This document shows, in pieces, positions 1,457 through 10,882 of a stretch of DNA of 64,000 nucleotides (positions are counted from its first letter, which is position 1; each line of letters opens with the position of its first letter). Made by a program: the position numbers and the translations under genes. The stretch is from assembly GCA_036011085.1 (NCBI GenBank), contig DASCMS010000003.1, positions 7,059 through 71,058 on the forward strand. The letters are read 5' to 3'. This DNA comes from Candidatus Latescibacterota bacterium. GTDB lineage: Bacteria > Latescibacterota > UBA2968 > UBA8231. The notes below the pieces were generated by a model. The model was not told the DNA's origin and made no database searches. It saw only the letters and a program-made list of their open reading frames with translations.

Positions 1457-2407
1457 GTGGATCCAGTGACCCTCTTCGGCCACAATGACCGCAACCTGGA
1501 ATCCCTCGAGAAGAGTTGTGGCGTCTCGCTGGTCGCCAGGGGTGACCGGCTGATGGTCGACGGCCCGGAGGAATCCATCCGCATGGCCAGCGACCTGCTG
1601 TCCACGGTCATCGAGAGCCTGCGTCGAGATCCTGATCTGAGCCACGAGGATGTGCAGGCCCTTCTGCGCCAGGATCTGCGGGCAGCCAGCCGGCCCGGCA
1701 ACGCCGCGGAGGGAGAAGGCGTCGGATCGCGCACTGTCCGCACCTACAAAACCACCGTTCGTGCCCGCAGTGGCGGCCAACTCGCCTATCTCGAATCGGT
1801 CTCACGCAACGACATCGTCTTCGTCATAGGTCCTGCCGGAACGGGCAAGACGTACCTCGCCGTCGCCGCCGCGGTCTCCGCTCTGAAGCAGAAGAAGGTC
1901 TCGCGAATCGTGCTGGCCCGGCCCGCCGTCGAAGCAGGAGAGAACCTGGGATTCCTTCCCGGTGCACTCGAAGACAAAGTGGACCCCTATCTGCGTCCTC
2001 TGTACGATGCCCTGCAGGAGCTGTTGGAGCCCGATCGACTCGTCCGTTTCCAGGGCATGAAGATCGTCGAGGTGGCACCGCTGGCCTTCATGCGAGGACG
2101 GACACTGAACGATGCCTTCATCATCCTCGACGAGGCGCAGAACACGACACCGGCGCAGATGAAGATGTTTCTCACGCGACTCGGGGCCGGATCCAAGGCG
2201 GTGGTCACCGGGGATATCACACAGACCGATCTGCCGCCCCACCAACCATCTGGGCTGATCGATGTGCGCAGCGTTCTGCGCGACGTGAGCGGTCTCGATT
2301 TCATTCATCTCACAGAGCGAGACGTTGTACGCAACCCCCTGGTGCAGCGCATCGTTCAGGCCTATGAAGGACACGACGACGCAACCAAGGCGGACAGTTC
2401 GACGTGA
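1457..2407 (+). CDS. phoH: PhoH-family ATPase (YbeZ-like)
   Basis: Walker A GPAGTGKTYLA, RPAVEAGENLGFLPG, PLAFMRGRTL, DEAQN, GDITQTDL; true start may be the in-frame CTG at 1430. Confidence 0.95.
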   Translation: MDPVTLFGHNDRNLESLEKSCGVSLVARGDRLMVDGPEESIRMASDLLSTVIESLRRDPDLSHEDVQALLRQDLRAASRPGNAAEGEGVGSRTVRTYKTTVRARSGGQLAYLESVSRNDIVFVIGPAGTGKTYLAVAAAVSALKQKKVSRIVLARPAVEAGENLGFLPGALEDKVDPYLRPLYDALQELLEPDRLVRFQGMKIVEVAPLAFMRGRTLNDAFIILDEAQNTTPAQMKMFLTRLGAGSKAVVTGDITQTDLPPHQPSGLIDVRSVLRDVSGLDFIHLTERDVVRNPLVQRIVQAYEGHDDATKADSST

Positions 2408-4692
2408 ACTCCACCGAGTGGAAACGTTGGTGGTCATCGCTGCGCGGCACGAGCCGCCGGTCTTCGGCCCGCGATGGTATCGGTCAGGCAGGCCTGCGGG
2501 TGTACCGACTCCTGCTGGCGCTGGCAGCCGTCGCCCTGCTCACCTATTTCTCTCCGTTGCAGCGCCCCTACAGCATCACTGACTTGCGCGTCGGCAGCGT
2601 CGCTCCCGAGCGGATCAACGCTCCGCTGCCCTTCTTCGTGCGCAAGACGAGTGACGAACTGGATCGTGAGCGGGTGGAGGCGGAACGCACGGTCCCCTCG
2701 CAGCTCATCCTGCACGAAGAGGTGAAGGACGCGCAGCTTGAACGATTGGACTCCGTGTTCTCCGTGCTGCTGACCAACATCCGCATGGAGATGGCGGACA
2801 CTCTCAAGCAACGGCGCCTGCAGCGGGAACTGCCCGACATCATCGGCTCGTTGTCCGAGGCGGCTCTGCAGGATCTGGTGTCCACCTTGTCCACTGCTCA
2901 CGCCGACACGGTGGCCAGCGTGCGCCGGGCGGGAATCCAGATGCTCGCCGACGCCTACAGCACCGGGATCATGCCATCCCGCGAGACGCCGCTGACGCGG
3001 CTCACCCGGCAAGCCCAGATCGATACCCGCCCCGTGTCCATCGATGCCCTGCACGATACACGGTCTCTGCGGGGTGGCGCCATGCTGACCTTGATCGAGG
3101 GCTACCCACCACTGGCGGGCAGCGGCGCCATCGAGGCCCTGCACGAACTGCTGGGACTGTTCGTCGCCCCCAATCTGACAATCGACGTACAGGCTACTGA
3201 ACGATTGCGCAACGAGGCGCGACGCAGTGTGGCCAGTATCAAGCAGCGCTACCTGCAGGACGAGATGATCGTCGACAAGAATGCCAAGGTCGAAACGCAG
3301 CACGTCGAAGCCCTGGAGGCTCTGGCAGCACATCTGGTGGAGGAAGAACTGAAGGATAGCACAACCCGCCTGATGCAGACCGCCGCTGCCGCCGTGATCG
3401 CGGCATTCATCCTGGTCGTACTCGGATTCTATCTGGCAACGCGTGAGCCCGCAGTCTACAACAGTCCCGGTCTGCTGCTCCTGCTCGCCATCATCGCCCT
3501 GGTGACGGCGGCGATCGCCTCCTACATCCGCACCGAGGACATCCAGACGTTCTTCGTGCCGGCGCCACTGGCTGCCATGCTTCTCACCATACTGCTGAGC
3601 CCACAACTGGCGCTGGTCGTCTCCTTCCTGCTGGCGCTGTTCATCGGCAGCCTCTTCGGTGACTTCTACGTTGCTATGATCTGTGCTCTGACATCCGCGG
3701 TGGCCGTGTTCTCAGTGCGCCATGTGCGCCACCGCAATCAGTTCTACCGCGCTATCATCCTCCTGCCGGCTTCCTACGCCGTGCTTATCGCCGCTGCCGA
3801 CCTGCTGCGCTTCGTCCAGCTGGATGAGATCTACAACCACGTTCTGCCCGGCATCTTCATCGGCGTGGCGGCGCCGATCGTCATCCAGGGCCTGCTGCCA
3901 ATCTTCGAAAGCCTGTTCACCGTGACCACGGATATCACGCTTCTCGAACTCTCCGATCTCAACCGTCCCCTGTTGCGCGAACTCGCGATCCGCGCCCCGG
4001 GCACCTATACGCATTCGCTGATCATGGCCAACCTTTCCGAAGCAGGCGCCCAGCGTATCGGCGCCAGCCCCCTCCTGGCGAGGGTCGGCTGTTACTATCA
4101 CGATGTCGGCAAGATGCTGAAGCCGGAGTATTTCACCGAAAACCAGGGCCTGCGCGGTGGCCGCAACCCGCACGATCATCTCACGCCGAGTATGAGTTTC
4201 CTCATCATCGACTCGCACGTGAAGGATGGCATCGAACTGGGCGAGGAGAACGGTCTGCCGAAGGCCATTGTCGATCTCATCCCACAGCATCACGGTACGA
4301 CCGTAATCGAATACTTCTACAATCGCGCCATCGAGCTGGGTGTGGAGAATGTCCGCCGCGACGATTTTCGGTATGATGGTCCCAAACCGCAGACGAAGGA
4401 GGCCGGGATACTCATGCTGGCCGATTCCGTAGAGTCGGCAGCGCGGACGCTTACCGAACGTACGCCCAACCGCGTCCGGCAGCTGGTGCGACGCATCGTT
4501 CAGCAGAAGTTCAGCGCCGGTGAACTCGATGAGTGCCCGCTGACGCTGCGCGACCTGCACGCCATTGAAGAGTCCTTCATACCTGTGCTGATGGGCACTC
4601 TGCACGGACGCCTCGAATACCCATGGCAGAAGGACGGCCGCAAGGGGAGCCGGACGGATGTTCCGTCTACACTGCAGTCCCGATCTGCCTGA
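2404..4692 (+). CDS. pgpH: 7TM-HD phosphohydrolase (PgpH/YqfF-like cyclic-di-AMP phosphodiesterase family)
   Basis: N-terminal TM, large extracytoplasmic region, 7-TM block, HD domain APGTYTHS...YYHDVGK...ENQ...QHHGTT...YDGPKPQTKE...MLADSVE; between phoH and ybeY. Confidence 0.88.
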   Translation: MNSTEWKRWWSSLRGTSRRSSARDGIGQAGLRVYRLLLALAAVALLTYFSPLQRPYSITDLRVGSVAPERINAPLPFFVRKTSDELDRERVEAERTVPSQLILHEEVKDAQLERLDSVFSVLLTNIRMEMADTLKQRRLQRELPDIIGSLSEAALQDLVSTLSTAHADTVASVRRAGIQMLADAYSTGIMPSRETPLTRLTRQAQIDTRPVSIDALHDTRSLRGGAMLTLIEGYPPLAGSGAIEALHELLGLFVAPNLTIDVQATERLRNEARRSVASIKQRYLQDEMIVDKNAKVETQHVEALEALAAHLVEEELKDSTTRLMQTAAAAVIAAFILVVLGFYLATREPAVYNSPGLLLLLAIIALVTAAIASYIRTEDIQTFFVPAPLAAMLLTILLSPQLALVVSFLLALFIGSLFGDFYVAMICALTSAVAVFSVRHVRHRNQFYRAIILLPASYAVLIAAADLLRFVQLDEIYNHVLPGIFIGVAAPIVIQGLLPIFESLFTVTTDITLLELSDLNRPLLRELAIRAPGTYTHSLIMANLSEAGAQRIGASPLLARVGCYYHDVGKMLKPEYFTENQGLRGGRNPHDHLTPSMSFLIIDSHVKDGIELGEENGLPKAIVDLIPQHHGTTVIEYFYNRAIELGVENVRRDDFRYDGPKPQTKEAGILMLADSVESAARTLTERTPNRVRQLVRRIVQQKFSAGELDECPLTLRDLHAIEESFIPVLMGTLHGRLEYPWQKDGRKGSRTDVPSTLQSRSA

Positions 4693-5161
4693 CGGACTCG
4701 ACCAGGCCAGCCTTGACGGGCTGGAGAAGGCGGCCCGCAGGACGCTGTCCCGTCATGCCGCGGGGGGACTCGTCGACATCATCCTTACTGGCGACGATGA
4801 AGTGCACAGGCTGAATCGGACGTTTCGGGGGCGCGACCAGCCCACCGATGTGTTGTCCTTCTCTTTCGTCGAGAATGGACAGCAGGCCATCACTGGCGAC
4901 GACGTCCTGATCGGCGAGGACGTGCCGGCGGGAGAGGTCTACATCTCTCTCGATCGAGCCCGGGTGCAGGCTGACGAACTCGGCACGCCGCGCGATCGAG
5001 AGTTGGCTCGGCTCCTCATCCACGGCCTGCTGCATCTGGCTGGCTTCGACCACCAGACCGACGTAGACTTGCGGGAGATGGAAAGCCTCACCGACGAACT
5101 GCTCGATACAGTCGCCCATGAAGACCCGTCCTGGCGGACGGATTCACCGAAAGGAGTCTGA
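4658..5161 (+). CDS. ybeY: rRNA maturation endoribonuclease YbeY
   Basis: LNRTFRGRDQPTDVLSF, GEVYIS, zinc motif IHGLLHLAGFDH. Confidence 0.95.
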   Translation: MFRLHCSPDLPDGLDQASLDGLEKAARRTLSRHAAGGLVDIILTGDDEVHRLNRTFRGRDQPTDVLSFSFVENGQQAITGDDVLIGEDVPAGEVYISLDRARVQADELGTPRDRELARLLIHGLLHLAGFDHQTDVDLREMESLTDELLDTVAHEDPSWRTDSPKGV

Positions 5162-5172
5162 GAGAACCACTT

Positions 5173-6519
5173 TTGGAACCCCCACAACTTTTCGAACTCC
5201 TGCTGACGCTGTTGTCTTCGGCAGCCCTGTTCATTCTCGCCAGCTACGAGGCGACTTTCAGTGTCCTGTCACGCTCCAACCTGGAGCGGATGAAAGAGAC
5301 TGGCACGCCCCGCGCCCTGCTCATGTGGCAGATCTACGAGCCTCGCCATCGCCTGCATCTGATGGCACGACTTGGGCAGGGATTCTGTGCTGCCGCCCTG
5401 GCGCTGGCCCTGTTCTTCCTGTTGCGCGCCTACGTCGACGCCCGGTATGCAACACTCGGCGTCACTGCTGCCGTTTCGCTTTGTGTCCTGTTTGCTACGG
5501 CCACGGCACGGCGTGTCCGCTTTGAGGACGAAGACGAGAACTGGTACGTGCCCAGAGCCGCCCTTCTCTTCGTGCCACTCTACGTTCTCCTGTTCCCCTT
5601 TACGGCACTCGCAGAGCGAGTGACAAACGGGGACTACTCCGACGAGGAGTTCAAGGCGGAGAAAGAGGAAGAGTTGCGCAGTCTCGTCGAATCGGAAGGC
5701 GAGACCGGGGTCCTTGAAGAAGGCGAACGGGACATGATCGAAGGCGTCTTCGGCTTTCATGACCGTGTCGTGCGCGAGGTAATGGTACCGCGTGTCGATG
5801 TCACAGCCGTTGAGCAGAGCGGCACGCTCAACGATCTGCTGACCACCATCCGCGACACCGGGCACTCGCGCGTCCCGATCTACCAGGAATCTCTCGATTC
5901 GATCCGCGGCATCGTCTTCGCCAAGGACCTGTTGCAGCTGATCGAGATTCGCGCAGACCTGAACGGTGACAGCCCACTGAGCCTGCTGGTGGATGGCATC
6001 CCCGCAGCAGATGGCGAGACCCTGCATCTGCTGCACGAACCATACTACGTTCCCGAGACGAAGAAGATCGACCAGCTGCTCAGAGATCTCAGTGTGGCCC
6101 GTACTCGCCTGGCCGTGGCCGTTGATGAATACGGCGGGACGGCAGGACTGGTTACCACCGAAGACCTGGTGGAGGAGATCGTCGGCGACCTGCAGGATGA
6201 GTTCGACGCCGAAGAAGCGCTCTACAACTGGCAGACCCCTGACGAAATCCTCATAGTCAATCCCCGGATCAGCATCGCTGAGTTGAACGACCTGCTTGGT
6301 TCGGACCTGCCAAGCGACGGCTTCGACACCCTCGGAGGCTTCATCTACAACCATGTGGGACACGTACCCGAAGGTGGACAGACCATCACTGTTCCCAACT
6401 TCGAAATCATCATTCTCGCCGTCGACGGACAGAGAATCCAGCAGGTGCAGATGAAGCGCATCGCGGCGGAGGACAACGGCAACGGGGAACCCGACGAGAC
6501 GAGTGACAGCGAGTCTTGA
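5173..6519 (+). CDS. CNNM/CBS-pair/CorC_HlyC membrane protein (CorC/YbeX/TlyC-like metal homeostasis family)
   Basis: N-terminal TM domain, VREVMVPR, GHSRVPIY, AVDEYGGTAGLVTTEDLVEEIVG, FDTLGGFI; TTG start. Confidence 0.9.
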   Translation: MEPPQLFELLLTLLSSAALFILASYEATFSVLSRSNLERMKETGTPRALLMWQIYEPRHRLHLMARLGQGFCAAALALALFFLLRAYVDARYATLGVTAAVSLCVLFATATARRVRFEDEDENWYVPRAALLFVPLYVLLFPFTALAERVTNGDYSDEEFKAEKEEELRSLVESEGETGVLEEGERDMIEGVFGFHDRVVREVMVPRVDVTAVEQSGTLNDLLTTIRDTGHSRVPIYQESLDSIRGIVFAKDLLQLIEIRADLNGDSPLSLLVDGIPAADGETLHLLHEPYYVPETKKIDQLLRDLSVARTRLAVAVDEYGGTAGLVTTEDLVEEIVGDLQDEFDAEEALYNWQTPDEILIVNPRISIAELNDLLGSDLPSDGFDTLGGFIYNHVGHVPEGGQTITVPNFEIIILAVDGQRIQQVQMKRIAAEDNGNGEPDETSDSES

Positions 6520-6536
6520 ACGAGGCTTCCACCGAC

Positions 6537-6564
6537 TTGCGTCGGAGCCCGCAGTCCTTACTTT
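6537..6564 (+). promoter_or_regulatory. Putative sigma-70 promoter of the tRNA
   Basis: TTGCGT-16 bp-TACTTT ending 12 bp upstream of the tRNA. Confidence 0.45.
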
Positions 6565-6576
6565 CTCTCTTCGTGT

Positions 6577-6653
<77 letters not shown>

Positions 6654-6662
6654 AATCCATAT

Positions 6663-6693
6663 CAGGGAGCCGGCTCCGGCTCCCTGTTTTTTT
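6663..6693 (+). terminator. Rho-independent terminator after tRNA
   Basis: CAGGGAGCCGG-CT-CCGGCTCCCTG followed by T7. Confidence 0.9.
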
Positions 6694-6713
6694 GTGCAGA
6701 ACTGAGAGTTCCC

Positions 6714-7040
6714 ATGCCCCGATTTGACCGCATCGCCGAGGACTCACCCACCGCCGGCCGCCAGGACCGGATCACGCTGGATGAGCGCTTCGTCGCGCTG
6801 TTCCTGCCGGAGACACCATTGGCTCGTGTCGAGAGTCAGGAGCTTCGGCAGATCGTCTTGCACGCTCTGGAAGAGTTGACTCCCCAGGAGCTCAAGGTTG
6901 TCGAAGGGCGCTATCAGCACAAGAGATCACCAGGCGCTGTCGCCTCCCATCTGCACATCCCCAGTGACGAAGTCCGGGCGCTCGAACGCAGCGCTCTGGA
7001 GAAGCTGCGCAAGCCACTGATCGAGTACATGGAGTCGTAA
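6714..7040 (+). CDS. Stand-alone sigma-70 region-4-like HTH protein
   Basis: ALEELTPQELKVVEGRY...SPGAVASHLHIPSDEVRALERSALEKLR follows the sigma region-4 pattern; no region 2; TAATG overlap with lnt. Confidence 0.75.
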   Translation: MPRFDRIAEDSPTAGRQDRITLDERFVALFLPETPLARVESQELRQIVLHALEELTPQELKVVEGRYQHKRSPGAVASHLHIPSDEVRALERSALEKLRKPLIEYMES

Positions 7041-9304
7041 TGTCGTCGCCGTCGGCGGAGCAGCGTGTTGTCTCCCTGTCCCCTCTGGCGGTTCCCATCG
7101 CGACCGGTGTCATCAGCGGCGTTCTCCACGGTCTGAGCCTGCCGGGATGGGGCTCAGGCTGGCTCGCCTGGGTCTGTCTCGTCCCCGTACTCTGTGTTGT
7201 TACTCGCCCACCGAACGGCGCCACCTGGACAACCCGAAGTGCTCTGCTCTGCGGTCTGGCGAGTGGTGGCGCAAGCGGCCTCTTCCGGGTCTACTGGATC
7301 GCCGAGACGCTGGGACGATACGGCGGGCTCGGGTTGGTGGAGGCCGTGGCGACGACGGCCCTTCTCGTCCTTTATCTGGCCGTCTATCCGATGCTGTTCT
7401 TCAGCATCTGTCGGCGTCTCCGTGACGCTGGCACGCCATCATCGTGGAACGCCGATCTCCTCATCCCCTGGCTGGTAGCTGCGGCGTGGGTGTTGCTGGA
7501 CTGGGTTCAGACGTGGCTGCTGTCCGGCTTTCCCTGGGTGGTTCTGGGCACCACCCAGTACGACGAACCCTTGATCGCTGCTTTCGCCGCCCTTGCTGGC
7601 GTCCACGGCCTCACTTTCTGCATCGTCCTGGTCAACATGGGTTTCGCCCAACTGCTCTGCTCTACCCGTGCCAGGCAACGGATCAGTGCCAGCTTCGCCG
7701 TCCTACTCCCGGGTATCGCCATTGTCGTCTGGGGCGTCGGCCAACTGAACGCTCTGGCGTCAGAGTCCAAAATCGAGCCGCTGCGCATCGGCATTATACA
7801 GGGAAACATCCGTCAGGATGTGAAGTGGGAGCCGGGGTGGAAACAATCCACGACGCAGAGATACGCGGACCTCACCAGGGCGCTTGCCGAGGATTCCGGT
7901 CGTCTCGACCTCATTCTCTGGCCCGAGACCGCTCTCCCCTATCGCTTCGACGACGATGCTCACCTGAGCTACCGGCACGCCGTCGCACAGTTGGCGATCG
8001 ACATCGACACACCGCTGCTCGTAGGCAGTCTCGGGACCAGATCACCCACCGGACGACCGGGGCTCTACAATCGTTCATTCCTCATCGACCGCCGGGGCGA
8101 TGTGGCCGGCTTCGGGGACAAGGTTCACCTGGTTCCCTTCGGCGAATACCTGCCATTCGCCTGGTTGTTCGGCTACATGCACGAACTCACCGCGCAGAGT
8201 GGCGCCTTCGATCCAGGTGAGAGGCACGCTATCATTCCTCTCGGCACCGCACCAGAGAACCATCTGGGATTGTTTGTCTGTTATGAGTCCATCTTCCCGG
8301 CGATCACTCGAGATCTTGCCGCCAGGGGAGCCGGGTTCCTCGTCAACACGACCAACGACGCCTGGTTCGGAACCACGGCAGCCCCCTACCAGCATTTCGC
8401 CATGGTCGTTCTGCGGGCCGTGGAGACGGGGCGGCCAGTCGTGAGGGCAGCCAACACGGGCATCTCGGGAGCCATCGGTCCGGATGGACGGATCCATCAC
8501 GCCACAGAGCTGTTCCAGACTGGCACCCTCGCCGTTGCGGTGCAGCCGCGCACCGAACTGACACCGTACGTCAGATACGGTGACGTCGTCTTCTTGCTTG
8601 GAGCCGGTCTCTGGGTCGGCTGGTTCTGCCTCGTCGGCCATCGCCGGCGAGCCACTGTCTTGCAGGATATGGCTGCGGCAGGGCTCGAACTCGACATCCT
8701 TGCAGCACAACCGACGCCGCTGCAACGCCCCGTGGTTCTGCTTCCCGGATACGATAGTTCCGCAGAGGCCTTCGTTACTCTGCGGGCGCATCTGGAACGT
8801 TGTTTCACGGGGACGTCAGGGCGCATCATCGACATCGACCTGCGACACAATCTACCGTTGCCGGACCTGGTCACCCACGCCGATGGCGCCCGTCCAGGTG
8901 AACCGTGCGACTACATCGGTCACAGTCTGGGTGGGCTGGTCGCCGCCGCCCTGTCCCGGGAGTCGGACGATGAGCCATGGGTTTTCGCCCTGGCCTCGCC
9001 CTTCGGCGGTACACGACTGGCAACGGTGGCTCGCTGGCTTCGATTCCCCTTTCCGGCCCTGCTCGCAGATCTTGCCGAGCAACGTCAGGGCAACGACGGG
9101 ATGGTGCGTCGACAGCGCGGCTTCCGTGCCCTTCACCTGCGCGGTGATCCCATCGCTTCGGGACTTCCTCCAGGCAGCGATACGGCCTTTGACGTGCCGC
9201 TGCTTCTGCCCCCATGGCAACGCCATCGGTCAGTACATGCCGATCCGCGTGTCCTGCTGCGCATTGTGCTCGCACTGCGACAAAGACCGGGGGCCACGTC
9301 GTGA
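7040..9304 (+). CDS. lnt: Apolipoprotein N-acyltransferase fused to a C-terminal lipase-like alpha/beta-hydrolase
   Basis: SGFPW, IQGNI, catalytic triad WPETA / DKVHLVPFGEY / VCYESIF, NDAWFG, RAANTGIS, TPYVRYGD; then PVVLLPGY, GHSLGG, ASPFGGT, GDPI, RHRSVH. Confidence 0.92.
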   Translation: MSSPSAEQRVVSLSPLAVPIATGVISGVLHGLSLPGWGSGWLAWVCLVPVLCVVTRPPNGATWTTRSALLCGLASGGASGLFRVYWIAETLGRYGGLGLVEAVATTALLVLYLAVYPMLFFSICRRLRDAGTPSSWNADLLIPWLVAAAWVLLDWVQTWLLSGFPWVVLGTTQYDEPLIAAFAALAGVHGLTFCIVLVNMGFAQLLCSTRARQRISASFAVLLPGIAIVVWGVGQLNALASESKIEPLRIGIIQGNIRQDVKWEPGWKQSTTQRYADLTRALAEDSGRLDLILWPETALPYRFDDDAHLSYRHAVAQLAIDIDTPLLVGSLGTRSPTGRPGLYNRSFLIDRRGDVAGFGDKVHLVPFGEYLPFAWLFGYMHELTAQSGAFDPGERHAIIPLGTAPENHLGLFVCYESIFPAITRDLAARGAGFLVNTTNDAWFGTTAAPYQHFAMVVLRAVETGRPVVRAANTGISGAIGPDGRIHHATELFQTGTLAVAVQPRTELTPYVRYGDVVFLLGAGLWVGWFCLVGHRRRATVLQDMAAAGLELDILAAQPTPLQRPVVLLPGYDSSAEAFVTLRAHLERCFTGTSGRIIDIDLRHNLPLPDLVTHADGARPGEPCDYIGHSLGGLVAAALSRESDDEPWVFALASPFGGTRLATVARWLRFPFPALLADLAEQRQGNDGMVRRQRGFRALHLRGDPIASGLPPGSDTAFDVPLLLPPWQRHRSVHADPRVLLRIVLALRQRPGATS

Positions 9305-9311
9305 CGGGCTG

Positions 9312-9434
9312 CTAGCGTGCGCAGAGGATAACAAAACTCGTAACCAGCAACGTTGCGATATACATCCCAAACCAGTCTCGCAAAGCTTCCGTGCGATCGG
9401 GATTGCCGTTGAGGGCTTTGGTCAGGTGGCTCAT
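9312..9434 (-). CDS. Candidate 40-aa small membrane peptide
   Basis: MSHLTKALNGNPDRTEALRDWFGMYIATLLVTSFVILCAR; single C-terminal hydrophobic helix; only a weak purine-rich RBS. Confidence 0.4.
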   Translation of the reverse strand: MSHLTKALNGNPDRTEALRDWFGMYIATLLVTSFVILCAR

Positions 9435-9473
9435 CCATCCATCTTCCGGGTCGTTGTCCGATCGATATTGATC

Positions 9474-9631
9474 GAGACGACACAGCAGAAGCAAGGCTTA
9501 TGCCAGTTCTCAGAAGGAAGAGTCCGTTATATCTGTAACCTACGTGTTTACAACATGTTCCCAGTTATCGTTGCAGATTCAGACTGCACCTTTCATACCC
9601 TTGCGACAGCAGAATCCCTTTGCCTCGTCTC
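9474..9631. ncRNA. Candidate structured RNA (long rod with internal loops); identity unknown
   Basis: Nested complementary blocks 9474-9480/9625-9631, 9491-9496/9599-9604, 9521-9524/9582-9585, 9531-9539/9570-9578, 9542-9548/9552-9558. Confidence 0.35.
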
Positions 9632-9671
9632 ACTGTTGACACGCCAGAGGGCATCACTCCGAGCGCGAGAC

Positions 9672-9703
9672 ATCAATTATGATATTTACGTATCGTAATT
9701 GAT
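9672..9703. promoter_or_regulatory. AT-rich 13-6-13 inverted repeat (candidate operator or recombinase site)
   Basis: ATCAATTATGATA-TTTACG-TATCGTAATTGAT, one mismatch between arms. Confidence 0.55.
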
Positions 9704-9766
9704 ACACCTGGACCGTGTCGACAACATTCACCTCGAGAACGGACGCCTGGTCACTCACCGTTCGCC

Positions 9767-10882
9767 TCATGCCCCGTCAGGAACTACTGGAACATCCACC
9801 CATCGGCGCTCCCGATCGGCGGTAACGACTGCTTCGGCCACCGCCTGGGCGCGCATGCCATGATAGAAGGAGGGCGTGCAGTCACGTTCCTGCCGAATGG
9901 CGCTGACGAACTCCCAGGCCTGGTCGTAGCGAAAAGTGCGACCCGGGTCACCCTCCCCCGGGTCACTAGGACTTCCCTGGCGTTTGAGAAACTGCTCCGG
10001 AACCGGCAGAACCCTGTACGGCTCACTCCGGCCTCGCCCGGCGAAGAGGATCTCGTGGGGGCTATGCAGGTGATACGCGGCGCTGGCCTCGGTACCATTC
10101 AGTTCGGCAAGATCGTGATCGCCACCAGGACCACGCCCCCTCGACAGCTTGCCCATCTCGAAGACGCAGCTCGCCCCGCTGTCGAACTCGGCGATCCAGG
10201 CCACCCAGTCCTCCACGTCCTGTGGCGGACACGCCTGACCCTCCCCTGTCTGCTGGCGCGGTACCAGTTGTTTCATGCTGGAGCACACTGAACGGATCGG
10301 CCCCATCAGATCCTCTGCATAGTCGATCCGATGGATCCCCATGTCACCCAGCTCTCCCAGTCCCGCCTGGGCCCGGTACTGGCGCCAGCCGATGGCGTTC
10401 TCACCCCAGTCCTGCAACCGCTGGATCCGGGCGTGTCGGATCGTGCCCAGTGCGCCGCTGTCGACGAGGTGCTTCAGGTACGCCATACCGGGAACGAAGC
10501 GGTAGGTGAAGGCCGTCATGTGGCGCCTTCCCGAGGACACGGCTGTCCGATAGATGGCGACCGTTTCGGCCAGATCCATACCGAGAGGCTTCTCGCACAT
10601 CACGTGACAACCAGCCTCCAGGGCTCGTTCGATCAGACCTCGATGCAGGTGATTTGGCGTAGCGATGACGACGGCATCGAGATCAGTCTTGAGAAACTCG
10701 TCCACATCGGCGGTCGTCCTCTCAACGCCCCACTCGACTCGCCGGCTCTCCAGCAGAGCGGCATCCGGATCGCAGAGGGCAGCGATCTCCACGCCCGGAA
10801 TCCGCGACAGTCCGGGAAAGTGCACGGCCGCGCAGACTCCCCCCACACCGATCAGCCCGACTTGCAGAGTAGCTTGGCTCAT
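9767..10882 (-). CDS. Gfo/Idh/MocA family oxidoreductase
   Basis: VGLIGVGG, ATPNHLH, HVMCEKP, GELGDMGIHRID. Confidence 0.92.
   Translation of the reverse strand: MSQATLQVGLIGVGGVCAAVHFPGLSRIPGVEIAALCDPDAALLESRRVEWGVERTTADVDEFLKTDLDAVVIATPNHLHRGLIERALEAGCHVMCEKPLGMDLAETVAIYRTAVSSGRRHMTAFTYRFVPGMAYLKHLVDSGALGTIRHARIQRLQDWGENAIGWRQYRAQAGLGELGDMGIHRIDYAEDLMGPIRSVCSSMKQLVPRQQTGEGQACPPQDVEDWVAWIAEFDSGASCVFEMGKLSRGRGPGGDHDLAELNGTEASAAYHLHSPHEILFAGRGRSEPYRVLPVPEQFLKRQGSPSDPGEGDPGRTFRYDQAWEFVSAIRQERDCTPSFYHGMRAQAVAEAVVTADRERRWVDVPVVPDGA

Follow-up and report, generated by a model that had tools for sequence, protein, structure and literature searches.

A conserved fusion of apolipoprotein N-acyltransferase with a predicted cytoplasmic alpha/beta-hydrolase in one family of Latescibacterota

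Introduction

Many Gram-negative bacteria cannot live without apolipoprotein N-acyltransferase (Lnt), and the enzyme is under study as a drug target. To our knowledge, the handling of lysophospholipid after the Lnt reaction is poorly known outside Proteobacteria. In the window, that is, the whole 64,000-nucleotide stretch of a Candidatus Latescibacterota contig (DASCMS010000003.1) that was analysed, a lnt gene continues in frame past its last transmembrane (TM) helix into some 220 further residues with lipase-like motifs. Is this joint real, on which side of the membrane does the added domain lie, and what might it do next to Lnt? An earlier note, made from the letters of this DNA, had suggested that the domain hydrolyses or re-acylates the lyso product, supplies acyl chains or edits lipoprotein acylation.

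Results

A complete Lnt in a conserved operon

The features of the locus are collected in Table 1. By their sequence, residues 1-534 make up a full Lnt, for which N-acylation of lipoproteins is predicted. Pfam LNT_N (E 2.6e-30) and CN_hydrolase (E 1.5e-28) both matched, NCBIfam TIGR00546 (lnt) scored 306 bits over residues 83-485 against a cut-off of 132.9, and E296, K361 and C414 were invariant in 22 of 22 fused proteins, in keeping with the complete Lnt and Glu-Lys-Cys triad read earlier from the sequence. The end of the last TM helix had been placed at about 8640, which proved right, since nothing hydrophobic lies past residues 513-534 (nt 8576-8641). Profile comparison with solved Lnt structures gave E ~1e-75, and the full-length model superposed on 21 Lnt entries (5N6M, 5VRG and 8B0L among them) with target-normalised TM scores of 0.80-0.87 and rmsd of 3.2-4.6 over about 525 columns. 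The Lnt proteins of E. coli and P. aeruginosa (5N6H, 5VRG, 5XHQ, 5N6M, 8B0L) share with the fused Lnt the LNT_N domain and nitrilase fold, the Glu-Lys-Cys set, eight TM helices and an operon context with ybeY and corC. Solved or typical Lnt proteins, however, stop about 5-20 residues past TM8, whereas the fused Lnt adds 220 residues that would form a second catalytic domain.

The fused locus is fully syntenic (phoH-HD-ybeY-corC-sig4-lnt). The small sigma-70 region 4 ORF, whose TAA stop shares bases with the lnt ATG (TAATG), also lies directly 5' of lnt in relatives. Rfam and terminator scans (6400-9900 and 9200-9850) returned a tRNA-Met as their sole match and no terminator. Contigs from RNA libraries cover 8820-9083 and 9129-9279, which is not proof of transcription.

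Table 1. Coordinates of the fused gene and its parts in the window.
Feature	Position (nt)	Strand	Basis
Sigma-70 region 4 ORF, small, 108 aa	6714..7040	+	
Whole fused gene lnt-abh, a single uninterrupted reading frame, 754 aa plus stop	7040..9304	+	ORF, Pfam, NCBIfam
Lnt membrane domain, LNT_N, residues 26-200	7115..7639	+	Pfam, hydropathy, modelled helices
Periplasmic nitrilase-fold domain, CN_hydrolase, residues 250-505	7787..8554	+	Pfam
Lnt catalytic codons	E296 7925-7927; K361 8120-8122; C414 8279-8281	+	
TM8, last transmembrane helix, residues 513-534, then HRRR	8576..8641	+	hydropathy, model
First helix of the extra domain, residues 535-555	8642..8704	+	model: prolongs TM8
Predicted alpha/beta-hydrolase core, residues 556-747	8705..9280	+	motifs, model, structural matches
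PVVLLPGY, residues 564-571	8729-8752	+	
Predicted hydrolase triad codons	Ser629 8924-8926; Asp703 9146-9148; His729 9224-9226	+	
Small helical cap, residues 659-689	9014..9106	+	model, lower confidence here

The fusion is genuine and conserved

The fusion is confirmed as genuine and conserved, and not the product of a lost stop or a misassembly. Contigs from three other studies (8019-8869, 8191-9400 and 8271-8782) matched the window with 0 differences and 0 gaps, and all three bridge nt 8600-8750, where the earlier note had seen room for such an error. The same in-frame joint recurred in 20 or more other protein clusters and in the genomes of 8 further species (one cluster search gave 12 further fused clusters, another about 9 fused representatives), and it is kept despite divergence to 30-38% identity. 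Each module is intact and conserved, the two are inherited together, and purifying selection acts on both: dN/dS was 0.15-0.40 for the extra domain and 0.17-0.21 for Lnt, and the pairwise identities of the two halves were correlated (Pearson 0.94 over 231 pairs, which are not independent).

Two separate genes in relatives, or an architecture already common, had been named as grounds for giving up the fusion. We found that relatives carry either the fusion or nothing, with no split version (a separate C-terminal domain) in 41 relatives or in 168 genomes of the phylum searched with a domain-only profile, and that the architecture is rare, with 39 matches at E<=1e-3 among 1.84 billion representatives.

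Strong domain matches occurred in 9 of the 168 genomes, all from one family (9 of its 76 genomes), as long fused frames (G009, G018, G121-123, G167) or as fragments at contig ends (G013, G166). Apart from the fused frames, the matches in these 168 genomes were all weak (E 4e-9 to 2e-6), standalone and confined to another family. Lnt terminates right after TM8 in sister genomes, and unfused orthologues leave 70-110 nt from the lnt stop to the next gene. The domain is shown to be an accessory that Lnt can carry or not, with a clean loss in sister lineages. It is dispensable for Lnt function, because most relatives lack it and the same locus encodes a plain Lnt in five genomes of the same genus.

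Throughout the public data searched, the close family of the domain (E<=1e-10) was found only on Lnt or as fragments of such proteins. Five candidates for standalone hydrolases (P0016, P0017, P0018, P0027 and P0028) were rejected, all being fragments; P0016 and P0017 retain part of the Lnt C-terminus, and the gene call behind P0027 looks chimeric. The matches listed by a wider contig search were distant standalone hydrolases, mostly from Streptomyces, and among these matches 0 of 80 loci had an Lnt within 4 kb; they gave no help with placing the fusion taxonomically.

The extra domain has the fold and residues of a serine hydrolase

Residues 535-754 are predicted, from sequence and model, to be an alpha/beta-hydrolase with an intact Ser-Asp-His set. 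The AlphaFold2 model of this part (pLDDT 91.7, pTM 0.90) is a compact alpha/beta-hydrolase in which serine, aspartate and histidine follow strands 92-96, 163-168 and 182-185 in canonical order: GHSLG forms a G-x-S-x-G elbow after strand 5, and the acid and the histidine come after strands 7 and 8. The motifs picked out earlier, PVVLLPGY, IGHSLGG (Ser629 codon at 8924), ALASPFGGT, RGDPI and RHRSVHADPRV, are all present. The last of them holds as the histidine motif for H729, which is invariant, but not for H733 (VHAD), which is V, L, C or Y in relatives. All 22 fused proteins keep Ser629-Asp703-His729, as do all 36 sequences when standalone relatives are included; the residues invariant among the 22 are G570, Y571, G627, H628, S629, G631, A652, P654, G657, D703, R728 and H729. 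The first helix, also present in the standalone relatives inspected, has A547 and L551 invariant, and the cap bears a conserved aromatic and basic stretch (RWLRFPFPALLADL).

Which kind of hydrolase this may be is less sharply defined. Foldseek on the domain model returned lipases, thioesterases, BioH and monoacylglycerol lipases at E 1e-6 to 1e-4. VIA-align gave Z of 15.8-14.8 for its best 50 entries (152-187 aligned residues, rmsd 2.5-3.7), with lipases, esterases and thioesterases at Z of about 15, and Z>=8 for 987 of 1000 chains. This list of structural matches is flat, so that lipases fit no better than enzymes of the BioH or thioesterase type. The domain stays under every Pfam threshold, those of the lipase and lysophospholipase families included. 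The best Pfam match, Hydrolase_4 (PF12146), scored 20.5 bits on the domain and 17.6 on the whole protein (threshold 27) and aligned over profile positions 65-134 of 239, about 70 residues round the serine. PGAP1 (PF07819) scored 11.9 bits against a threshold of 24.3, which was passed by 8 of 16 standalone relatives scanned (P0030, P0034, P0038, P0039, P0042, P0046, P0053 and P0056), and the ESM look-alike clusters of the domain carry PGAP1 or DUF676. The label "lipase-type" given by the earlier note therefore stands at the level of fold, but not at that of Pfam families.

In its minimal fold the domain resembles small lipases and the PGAP1/DUF676 type (1ISP, Bacillus LipA; 5H6B, Streptomyces lipase; 7X2P, Legionella RavL; 6ZTI, PlaB). 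It also shares with them a small cap, an elbow of the GHSxGG type and, following strand 6, an A-x-P-x-x-G motif. Identity to solved structures is only 13-19%, and unlike these enzymes the extra domain has an added N-terminal helix continuous with a TM helix. The best solved relative by sequence is 7X2P (E 2.9e-7), whose Ser, Asp and His align with those of the domain; the parts of the literature returned by a search on RavL gave no function for it. PldB (lysophospholipase L2) and monoacylglycerol lipases are serine hydrolases that deacylate single-chain glycerolipids at the membrane surface. The Hydrolase_4 match and the monoacylglycerol lipases among the structural matches point to a likeness with them, but their cap is much larger than that of the extra domain.

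The hydrolase domain is predicted to lie in the cytoplasm

Hydropathy shows an 8-TM pattern, and the Lnt part can be aligned over its full length with 8-TM Lnt, the C-terminus of which is cytoplasmic in E. coli. In the full-length model (pLDDT 83.2, pTM 0.82), residues 516-555 form one unbroken helix. The eight TM helices, the HRRR that follows TM8 and the passage of TM8 straight into the first helix of the domain put the hydrolase, as predicted from sequence and model, in the cytoplasm, opposite the Lnt active site.

Discussion

A possible two-sided enzyme

We propose that a single polypeptide bears one catalytic module on each face of the inner membrane. The first, module 1 (residues 1-534), would be the housekeeping Lnt encoded in the conserved phoH-HD-ybeY-corC-lnt operon; at its periplasmic Glu-Lys-Cys site it would take the sn-1 acyl chain of a phospholipid, N-acylate lipoproteins and release 2-acyl lysophospholipid. 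TM8 would re-enter the cytoplasm and pass unbroken into the helix with which module 2 (residues 535-754) begins. Module 2 would be a minimal alpha/beta-hydrolase with a small aromatic and basic cap that may be held at the cytoplasmic membrane surface and act there as a serine esterase, or acyl-transferring enzyme, on an inner-leaflet lipid ester. Its likeliest substrate would be the lysophospholipid released by Lnt and other envelope acyltransferases, once at the inner leaflet, which module 2 would either deacylate in the manner of a lysophospholipase or re-acylate. Clearance of a by-product would so be tied to the enzyme that makes it, in genomes where LplT-Aas was not found.

These steps are not equally secure. 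It seems to us rather probable that module 2 works as a serine hydrolase in the cytoplasm and has a functional link to Lnt. Lysophospholipid as its specific substrate is a tentative best guess, and just as tentative is the picture of a self-contained "make and mend" enzyme, whose cytoplasmic site, kept close to the inner leaflet by TM8, would remove or re-acylate the lysophospholipid made by Lnt. For module 2 to handle it, the Lnt product must first flip to the inner leaflet; no LplT-type flippase was found within the LplT-Aas query.

Other readings of the extra domain

Module 2 might instead be a cytoplasmic esterase or thioesterase unlinked to the Lnt by-product (an acyl-ACP or acyl-CoA thioesterase, or a BioH-like carboxylesterase), tethered for membrane localisation or co-expression. 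BioH (E 2e-6) and the TesA and RedJ thioesterases do rank alongside lipases, JGI labels fragments and one standalone relative "pimeloyl-ACP methyl ester carboxylesterase", and sister genomes dispense with the domain. This reading sits less well, however, with a close family confined to Lnt and its fragments in the public data searched, and with the exact joint being kept down to 30-38% identity; the conserved stretch of the cap may also resemble those of interfacial enzymes. We hold it to be somewhat unlikely.

Patchiness raises the further thought of a silent or regulatory appendage (a lipid sensor or docking platform) or of a neutral passenger being lost: the Lnt tree calls for at least two losses or gains of the domain, its Pfam scores are under threshold and the Lnt C-terminus takes other fusions in this lineage. 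A decaying passenger is disfavoured, however, because the triad, the GxSxG elbow and the oxyanion-region glycine are invariant in 36 of 36 proteins and dN/dS of the domain is low, and we consider this reading improbable.

Editing of lipoprotein acylation, which the earlier note suggested, fares worse, whether the domain as a deacylase or proof-reader were to act on lipoproteins or on the Lnt acyl-enzyme. PGAP1 (GPI inositol deacylase) and palmitoyl-protein thioesterase, both among the look-alike families, strip acyl chains from lipid-anchored proteins, and the standalone relative P0029 carries a signal sequence resembling that of a lipoprotein. Such editing, however, needs the periplasmic side, and the predicted cytoplasmic placement therefore argues against it: a positive cluster follows TM8 immediately with no hydrophobic segment after it, and TM8 passes directly into the domain, so that we regard editing as very unlikely. 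The chance that a sequencing or assembly error, or a recently lost stop, joined two genes is negligible, no support for it having been found and the bridging contigs, the recurrent joint and the lack of adjacent separate lnt and abh genes in any relative all speaking against it.

Relation to LplT-Aas

The proposed role of module 2 in lysophospholipid handling invites comparison with LplT and Aas. In the part of the published account available to us, Lnt yields 2-acyl lysophospholipid, which LplT/Aas recycle at the inner leaflet (PMC13170283). LplT-Aas would thus share the proposed role without homology to module 2: Aas joins a PlsC-type acyltransferase to an acyl-ACP synthetase and is served by a flippase of its own, whereas module 2 would be a Ser-Asp-His hydrolase without a transporter. 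A PF01553 search of genome G000 returned only a PlsC-size gene and a giant with FAR, AMP-binding and acyltransferase parts, and no LplT-Aas. Of the 76 genomes of the family, 5 encode LplT-Aas, and none of these 5 is among the 9 fused genomes, an absence with a chance of about 0.5 by hand calculation. Complementarity between LplT-Aas and the fusion was rejected as uninformative, because LplT-Aas is also missing from most unfused genomes (about 62 of 67). A PlsC-type acyltransferase of about 410 aa occurs in unfused genomes of the same genus and not in G000 or G009, a pattern confounded with phylogeny, and the relative G010 has a tri-domain form (MFS, acyltransferase and AMP-binding).

If the proposed reading is true, the fusion would represent an alpha/beta-hydrolase-based alternative to the LplT-Aas repair system and the first physical coupling of the lipoprotein pathway to membrane lipid homeostasis. 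The joining of Lnt to a predicted cytoplasmic serine hydrolase offers a concrete, testable link from lipoprotein maturation to lipid turnover. There are practical limits: the organisms are uncultured marine bacteria, and close relatives do without the domain.

Other Lnt fusions

The earlier note knew of no described Lnt-lipase fusion, and the sources reached by literature searches, as far as available, likewise contained no description of Lnt joined to an alpha/beta-hydrolase. Mycobacterial Lnt-Ppm (Rv2051c / BCG_2070c) also combines Lnt with a second enzyme in one ORF. There, however, the partner is a polyprenol-phosphate-mannose synthase, a glycosyltransferase from another lineage; the C-terminal domain studied here gave no glycosyltransferase match in Pfam or by structure comparison. 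According to the accessible part of PMC3850990, Lnt and Ppm are separate neighbouring genes in C. glutamicum and M. smegmatis; Lnt-Ppm thus has split counterparts, whereas none was found for Lnt-abh.

This lineage also has a second Lnt paralogue, for which fusion to TatC is widespread. Together, Lnt-abh and Lnt-TatC mark the cytoplasmic C-terminus of Lnt as a place where partner enzymes are naturally attached. Public records name the fused proteins plain "apolipoprotein N-acyltransferase", an annotation that hides both architectures.

Identification of a genuine Lnt-hydrolase fusion

The fused gene is a single open frame whose ATG overlaps the TAA of the preceding ORF (TAATG). Its upstream genes reproduce the ybeZ-ybeY-ybeX-lnt arrangement, a classical E. 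coli operon, and thus this gene is the housekeeping lnt of the genome. Convergent genes for a Gfo/Idh/MocA oxidoreductase, a DHDPS-family protein and a cupin lie downstream.

Features of the lnt neighbourhood and of related loci. Bare positions refer to the window; G000 is the window's own genome, L numbers are loci of related genomes or of G000.
Feature	Position	Strand	Remark
phoH	1457-2407		upstream of lnt
7TM-HD protein	2404-4692		upstream of lnt
ybeY	4658-5161		upstream of lnt
CorC/CNNM gene	5173-6519		upstream of lnt
tRNA-Met	6577-6653		upstream of lnt
108-aa ORF	6714-7040	+	sigma-70 region 4 domain; directly upstream, overlaps lnt
lnt-hydrolase fusion	7040-9304	+	754 codons
intergenic region	9305-9766		460 nt, convergent, 3' of the fused gene
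lnt2	G000:C130, L123:2185-3774	-	window's own genome
tatC	G000:C130, L123:1260-2192	-	window's own genome
Lnt-TatC locus	L026:1285-3747	+	
Lnt-TatC locus	L121:1441-4212	-	
Lnt-TatC locus	L122:1556-4420	-	
1394-aa protein	G000:C163, L126:1169-5353	+	window's own genome
LplT-Aas	G010:C108, L128:1438-4887	+	relative; 1149 aa

The 108-aa ORF, with sigma-70 region 4 as its sole domain, is translationally coupled to lnt. A comparison of 14 loci, fused and unfused, showed it at the same position in every one, with 47-89% identity. The intergenic region has a G+C content of ~50%, against ~63% around it, and measures just ~70-110 nt in unfused relatives; Rfam and terminator scans of it gave no match and no terminator-like site.

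The earlier note had claimed that Lnt is fused to a lipase-type alpha/beta-hydrolase, and the fusion is real. Three other studies have contigs that span 8019-8869, 8191-9400 and 8271-8782 around the junction with 0 differences and 0 gaps. In addition, fourteen runs belonging to about nine studies (marine, seawater or hydrothermal-vent) contain at least 87% of the words of the stretch. A search with the C-terminal 220 residues retrieved 13 clusters of 676-777 aa (one being the window's own), all with LNT_N and CN_hydrolase and with 38-68% identity across the extra domain. Moreover, when 1.84 billion representatives were searched exhaustively, 39 proteins reached E<=1e-3: the best matches were fused proteins (521-761 aa), fragments came next, and standalone hydrolases (241-291 aa) did not appear before E 2e-9 and upward. 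Four short "standalone" matches proved on reading to be pieces of fused genes or gene-call chimeras. In the same pairs, dN/dS was 0.15-0.40 for the extra domain vs 0.17-0.21 for the Lnt part, and, pair by pair, identity in the Lnt half rises with identity in the hydrolase half (Pearson 0.94, Spearman 0.48, for 231 non-independent pairs).

The known Lnt fusion is the mycobacterial two-domain Lnt-Ppm (PMC3850990), whose partner domain is a glycosyltransferase, whereas here it is an alpha/beta-hydrolase. A full-text literature search, with most subscription journals outside its reach, found no report of a hydrolase, lipase or esterase domain attached to Lnt. The fused sequences are already public under the plain Lnt name: in MAGs of Candidatus Latescibacterota or Gemmatimonadota, submitters labelled them "apolipoprotein N-acyltransferase".

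A complete Lnt followed by a serine hydrolase domain

Residues 1-534 form an ordinary Lnt, with LNT_N at 26-200 and CN_hydrolase at 250-505 (Pfam) and a TIGR00546 (NCBIfam) score of 306 bits vs a cut-off of 132.9. The fused-family profile matched solved Lnt chains over their whole length (E ~1e-75), the full-length AF2 model superposed on 21 Lnt entries with target-normalised TM of 0.80-0.87, and the triad E296, K361, C414 is invariant in all 22 fused proteins. Hydropathy follows the Lnt pattern up to the last transmembrane helix (TM8, 513-534, then HRRR), with no hydrophobic segment detected C-terminal of it.

For residues 535-754, Pfam and NCBIfam scans gave no family at threshold, the best being Hydrolase_4 (20.5 bits vs 27). 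The AF2 model of the domain, built from an alignment of 36 relatives (pLDDT 91.7, pTM 0.90), begins with a helix, after which helices alternate with six strands; a small helical insertion separates the fourth of these strands from the fifth. Foldseek matched alpha/beta-hydrolases (Streptomyces lipase 5H6B at E 1.4e-6; also the RedJ and TesA thioesterases, BioH, monoacylglycerol lipases, RavL and Bacillus LipA), and VIA-align returned a flat list (Z 15.8-14.8, 152-187 aligned residues, rmsd 2.5-3.7). The fold is thus certain and the sub-family is not. Language-model atlas clusters were Abhydrolase_6, PGAP1, DUF676 and palmitoyl-thioesterase. The nearest solved sequence to the domain-only profile was RavL (7X2P, "putative lipase", E 2.9e-7), whose Ser, Asp and His line up with those of the domain.

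In the model, Ser629 directly follows strand 5 (GHSLGG), Asp703 strand 7 and His729 strand 8. These three residues, together with G570, G631, P654 and G657, are invariant in 36/36 sequences, and Y571, G627, H628, A652 and R728 additionally so among the 22 fused ones. Ser629 corresponds to the Ser codon that the earlier note placed at 8924, correctly; the RHRSVHAD motif named there for the His holds two, of which H729 alone is conserved among relatives. The cap carries a conserved RWLRFPF...LADL stretch, which would fit an interfacial enzyme.

The hydrolase domain is predicted to lie beneath Lnt

E. coli Lnt has both termini in the cytoplasm and its nitrilase domain in the periplasm. As far as the end of TM8 the fused proteins can be aligned with ordinary Lnt, and they have no additional TM helix. 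In the full-length model (pLDDT 83.2, pTM 0.82) TM8 and the first helix of the domain form one continuous helix, 516-555 (pLDDT 90-97). Together these observations would place the hydrolase at the cytoplasmic surface directly under Lnt, and the two active sites would face opposite sides of the membrane, that of Lnt periplasmic and that of the hydrolase cytoplasmic. A547 and L551 are invariant in this helix, and the standalone relatives read also have it: the first helix belongs to the domain itself and is no flexible linker. It stops about eight residues before the first strand and packs on the core, and that strand begins at the "bottom" of the sheet. Reasoning from this secondary-structure order, we infer that the catalytic and cap face is oriented towards the membrane.

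An old fusion, probably lost repeatedly

Lnt is present in 41/41 relatives, the extra domain in 4. Across the phylum, a domain-only profile had strong matches in 9 of 168 genomes, all within the window's family (9/76 genomes, five genera). Synteny, determined by tblastn of the window's neighbours, is identical at 6 fused and 8 unfused loci. The earlier note had considered that relatives might carry two separate genes; at syntenic loci the domain is instead either present or absent between TM8 and the convergent oxidoreductase. In an alignment, 16 of 19 orthologues (excluding L012 and L017, loci cut by contig ends) stop at most about 20 residues past TM8.

A maximum-likelihood tree of the Lnt part (27 rows, leaving out the truncated copies of genomes G004, G012, G013 and G166 and one outgroup locus) requires three state changes, and well-supported branches force at least two of these. 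The window's genome and G009, both fused, are sister to five unfused genomes of the same genus; since G167 and G018, the next two to branch off, likewise have the fusion, loss is the simplest reading in those five. The most economical history is that the fusion is old, was passed on together with lnt and disappeared at least twice. The domain is thus accessory, no requirement of Lnt.

Possible role of the hydrolase domain

The domain is probably catalytically active as a cytoplasmic serine hydrolase and tied to Lnt. The favoured role is that of a lipid esterase or transacylase at the membrane surface with lysophospholipid as its substrate, although this particular substrate is tentative and less likely than not. 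Lnt yields a 2-acyl lysophospholipid, which in E. coli is flipped by LplT and re-acylated by Aas at the inner leaflet (PMC13170283). Lysophospholipid is favoured as substrate because Lnt releases it and LplT-Aas was not found in any of the fused genomes, the window's own among them. A PlsC-family search of the window's genome (92.7% complete) returned just a gene of PlsC size and a protein of 1394 aa with reductase, AMP-binding and acyltransferase domains. True LplT-Aas, a three-domain protein (MFS, acyltransferase and AMP-binding), is present in relative G010 but in no more than 5/76 family genomes, none of the five fused; this complementarity lacks significance, as the majority of unfused genomes also do without LplT-Aas. 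The structural match list fits a thioesterase equally well. Editing of lipoprotein acylation, raised in the earlier note, is disfavoured by the cytoplasmic topology.

The 1394-aa protein combines a fatty-acyl reductase (NAD_binding_4 and Sterile) with AMP-binding and PlsC-type acyltransferase domains and is reminiscent of the myxobacterial ether-lipid enzyme ElbD; several genomes of the same genus have similar frames of 1399-1424 aa. Among full-length standalone relatives of the hydrolase domain, the nearest is the database protein P0029 (255 aa). It has an N-terminal lipoprotein-like signal (…LFASVGC), so members of the wider family may work outside the cytoplasm.

A second Lnt paralogue fused to TatC

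A second Lnt paralogue of this lineage shares 34% identity with the window's Lnt, and many genomes carry it as an in-frame fusion with TatC. In G000, lnt2 and tatC are separate genes with an 8-nt overlap. At 3/3 loci checked, LNT_N, CN_hydrolase and TatC lie together in an ORF or open frame (821-954 aa), and in genus g17 the second Lnt has open frames of 764-821 aa in 12/12 genomes. Among the 120 matches listed for the TatC part, 105 had LNT_N, CN_hydrolase and TatC, 5 CN_hydrolase and TatC, and 10 TatC and PF19838. Some of these matches lie on 4-8 Mb contigs, and all are named plain Lnt. A literature search found no description of an Lnt-TatC fusion. Such a fusion suggests a coupling of Tat export with lipoprotein N-acylation. 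The TatC-PF19838 proteins (P0186-P0195) are ~725-1185 aa long, some from Gemmatimonadales-labelled MAGs.
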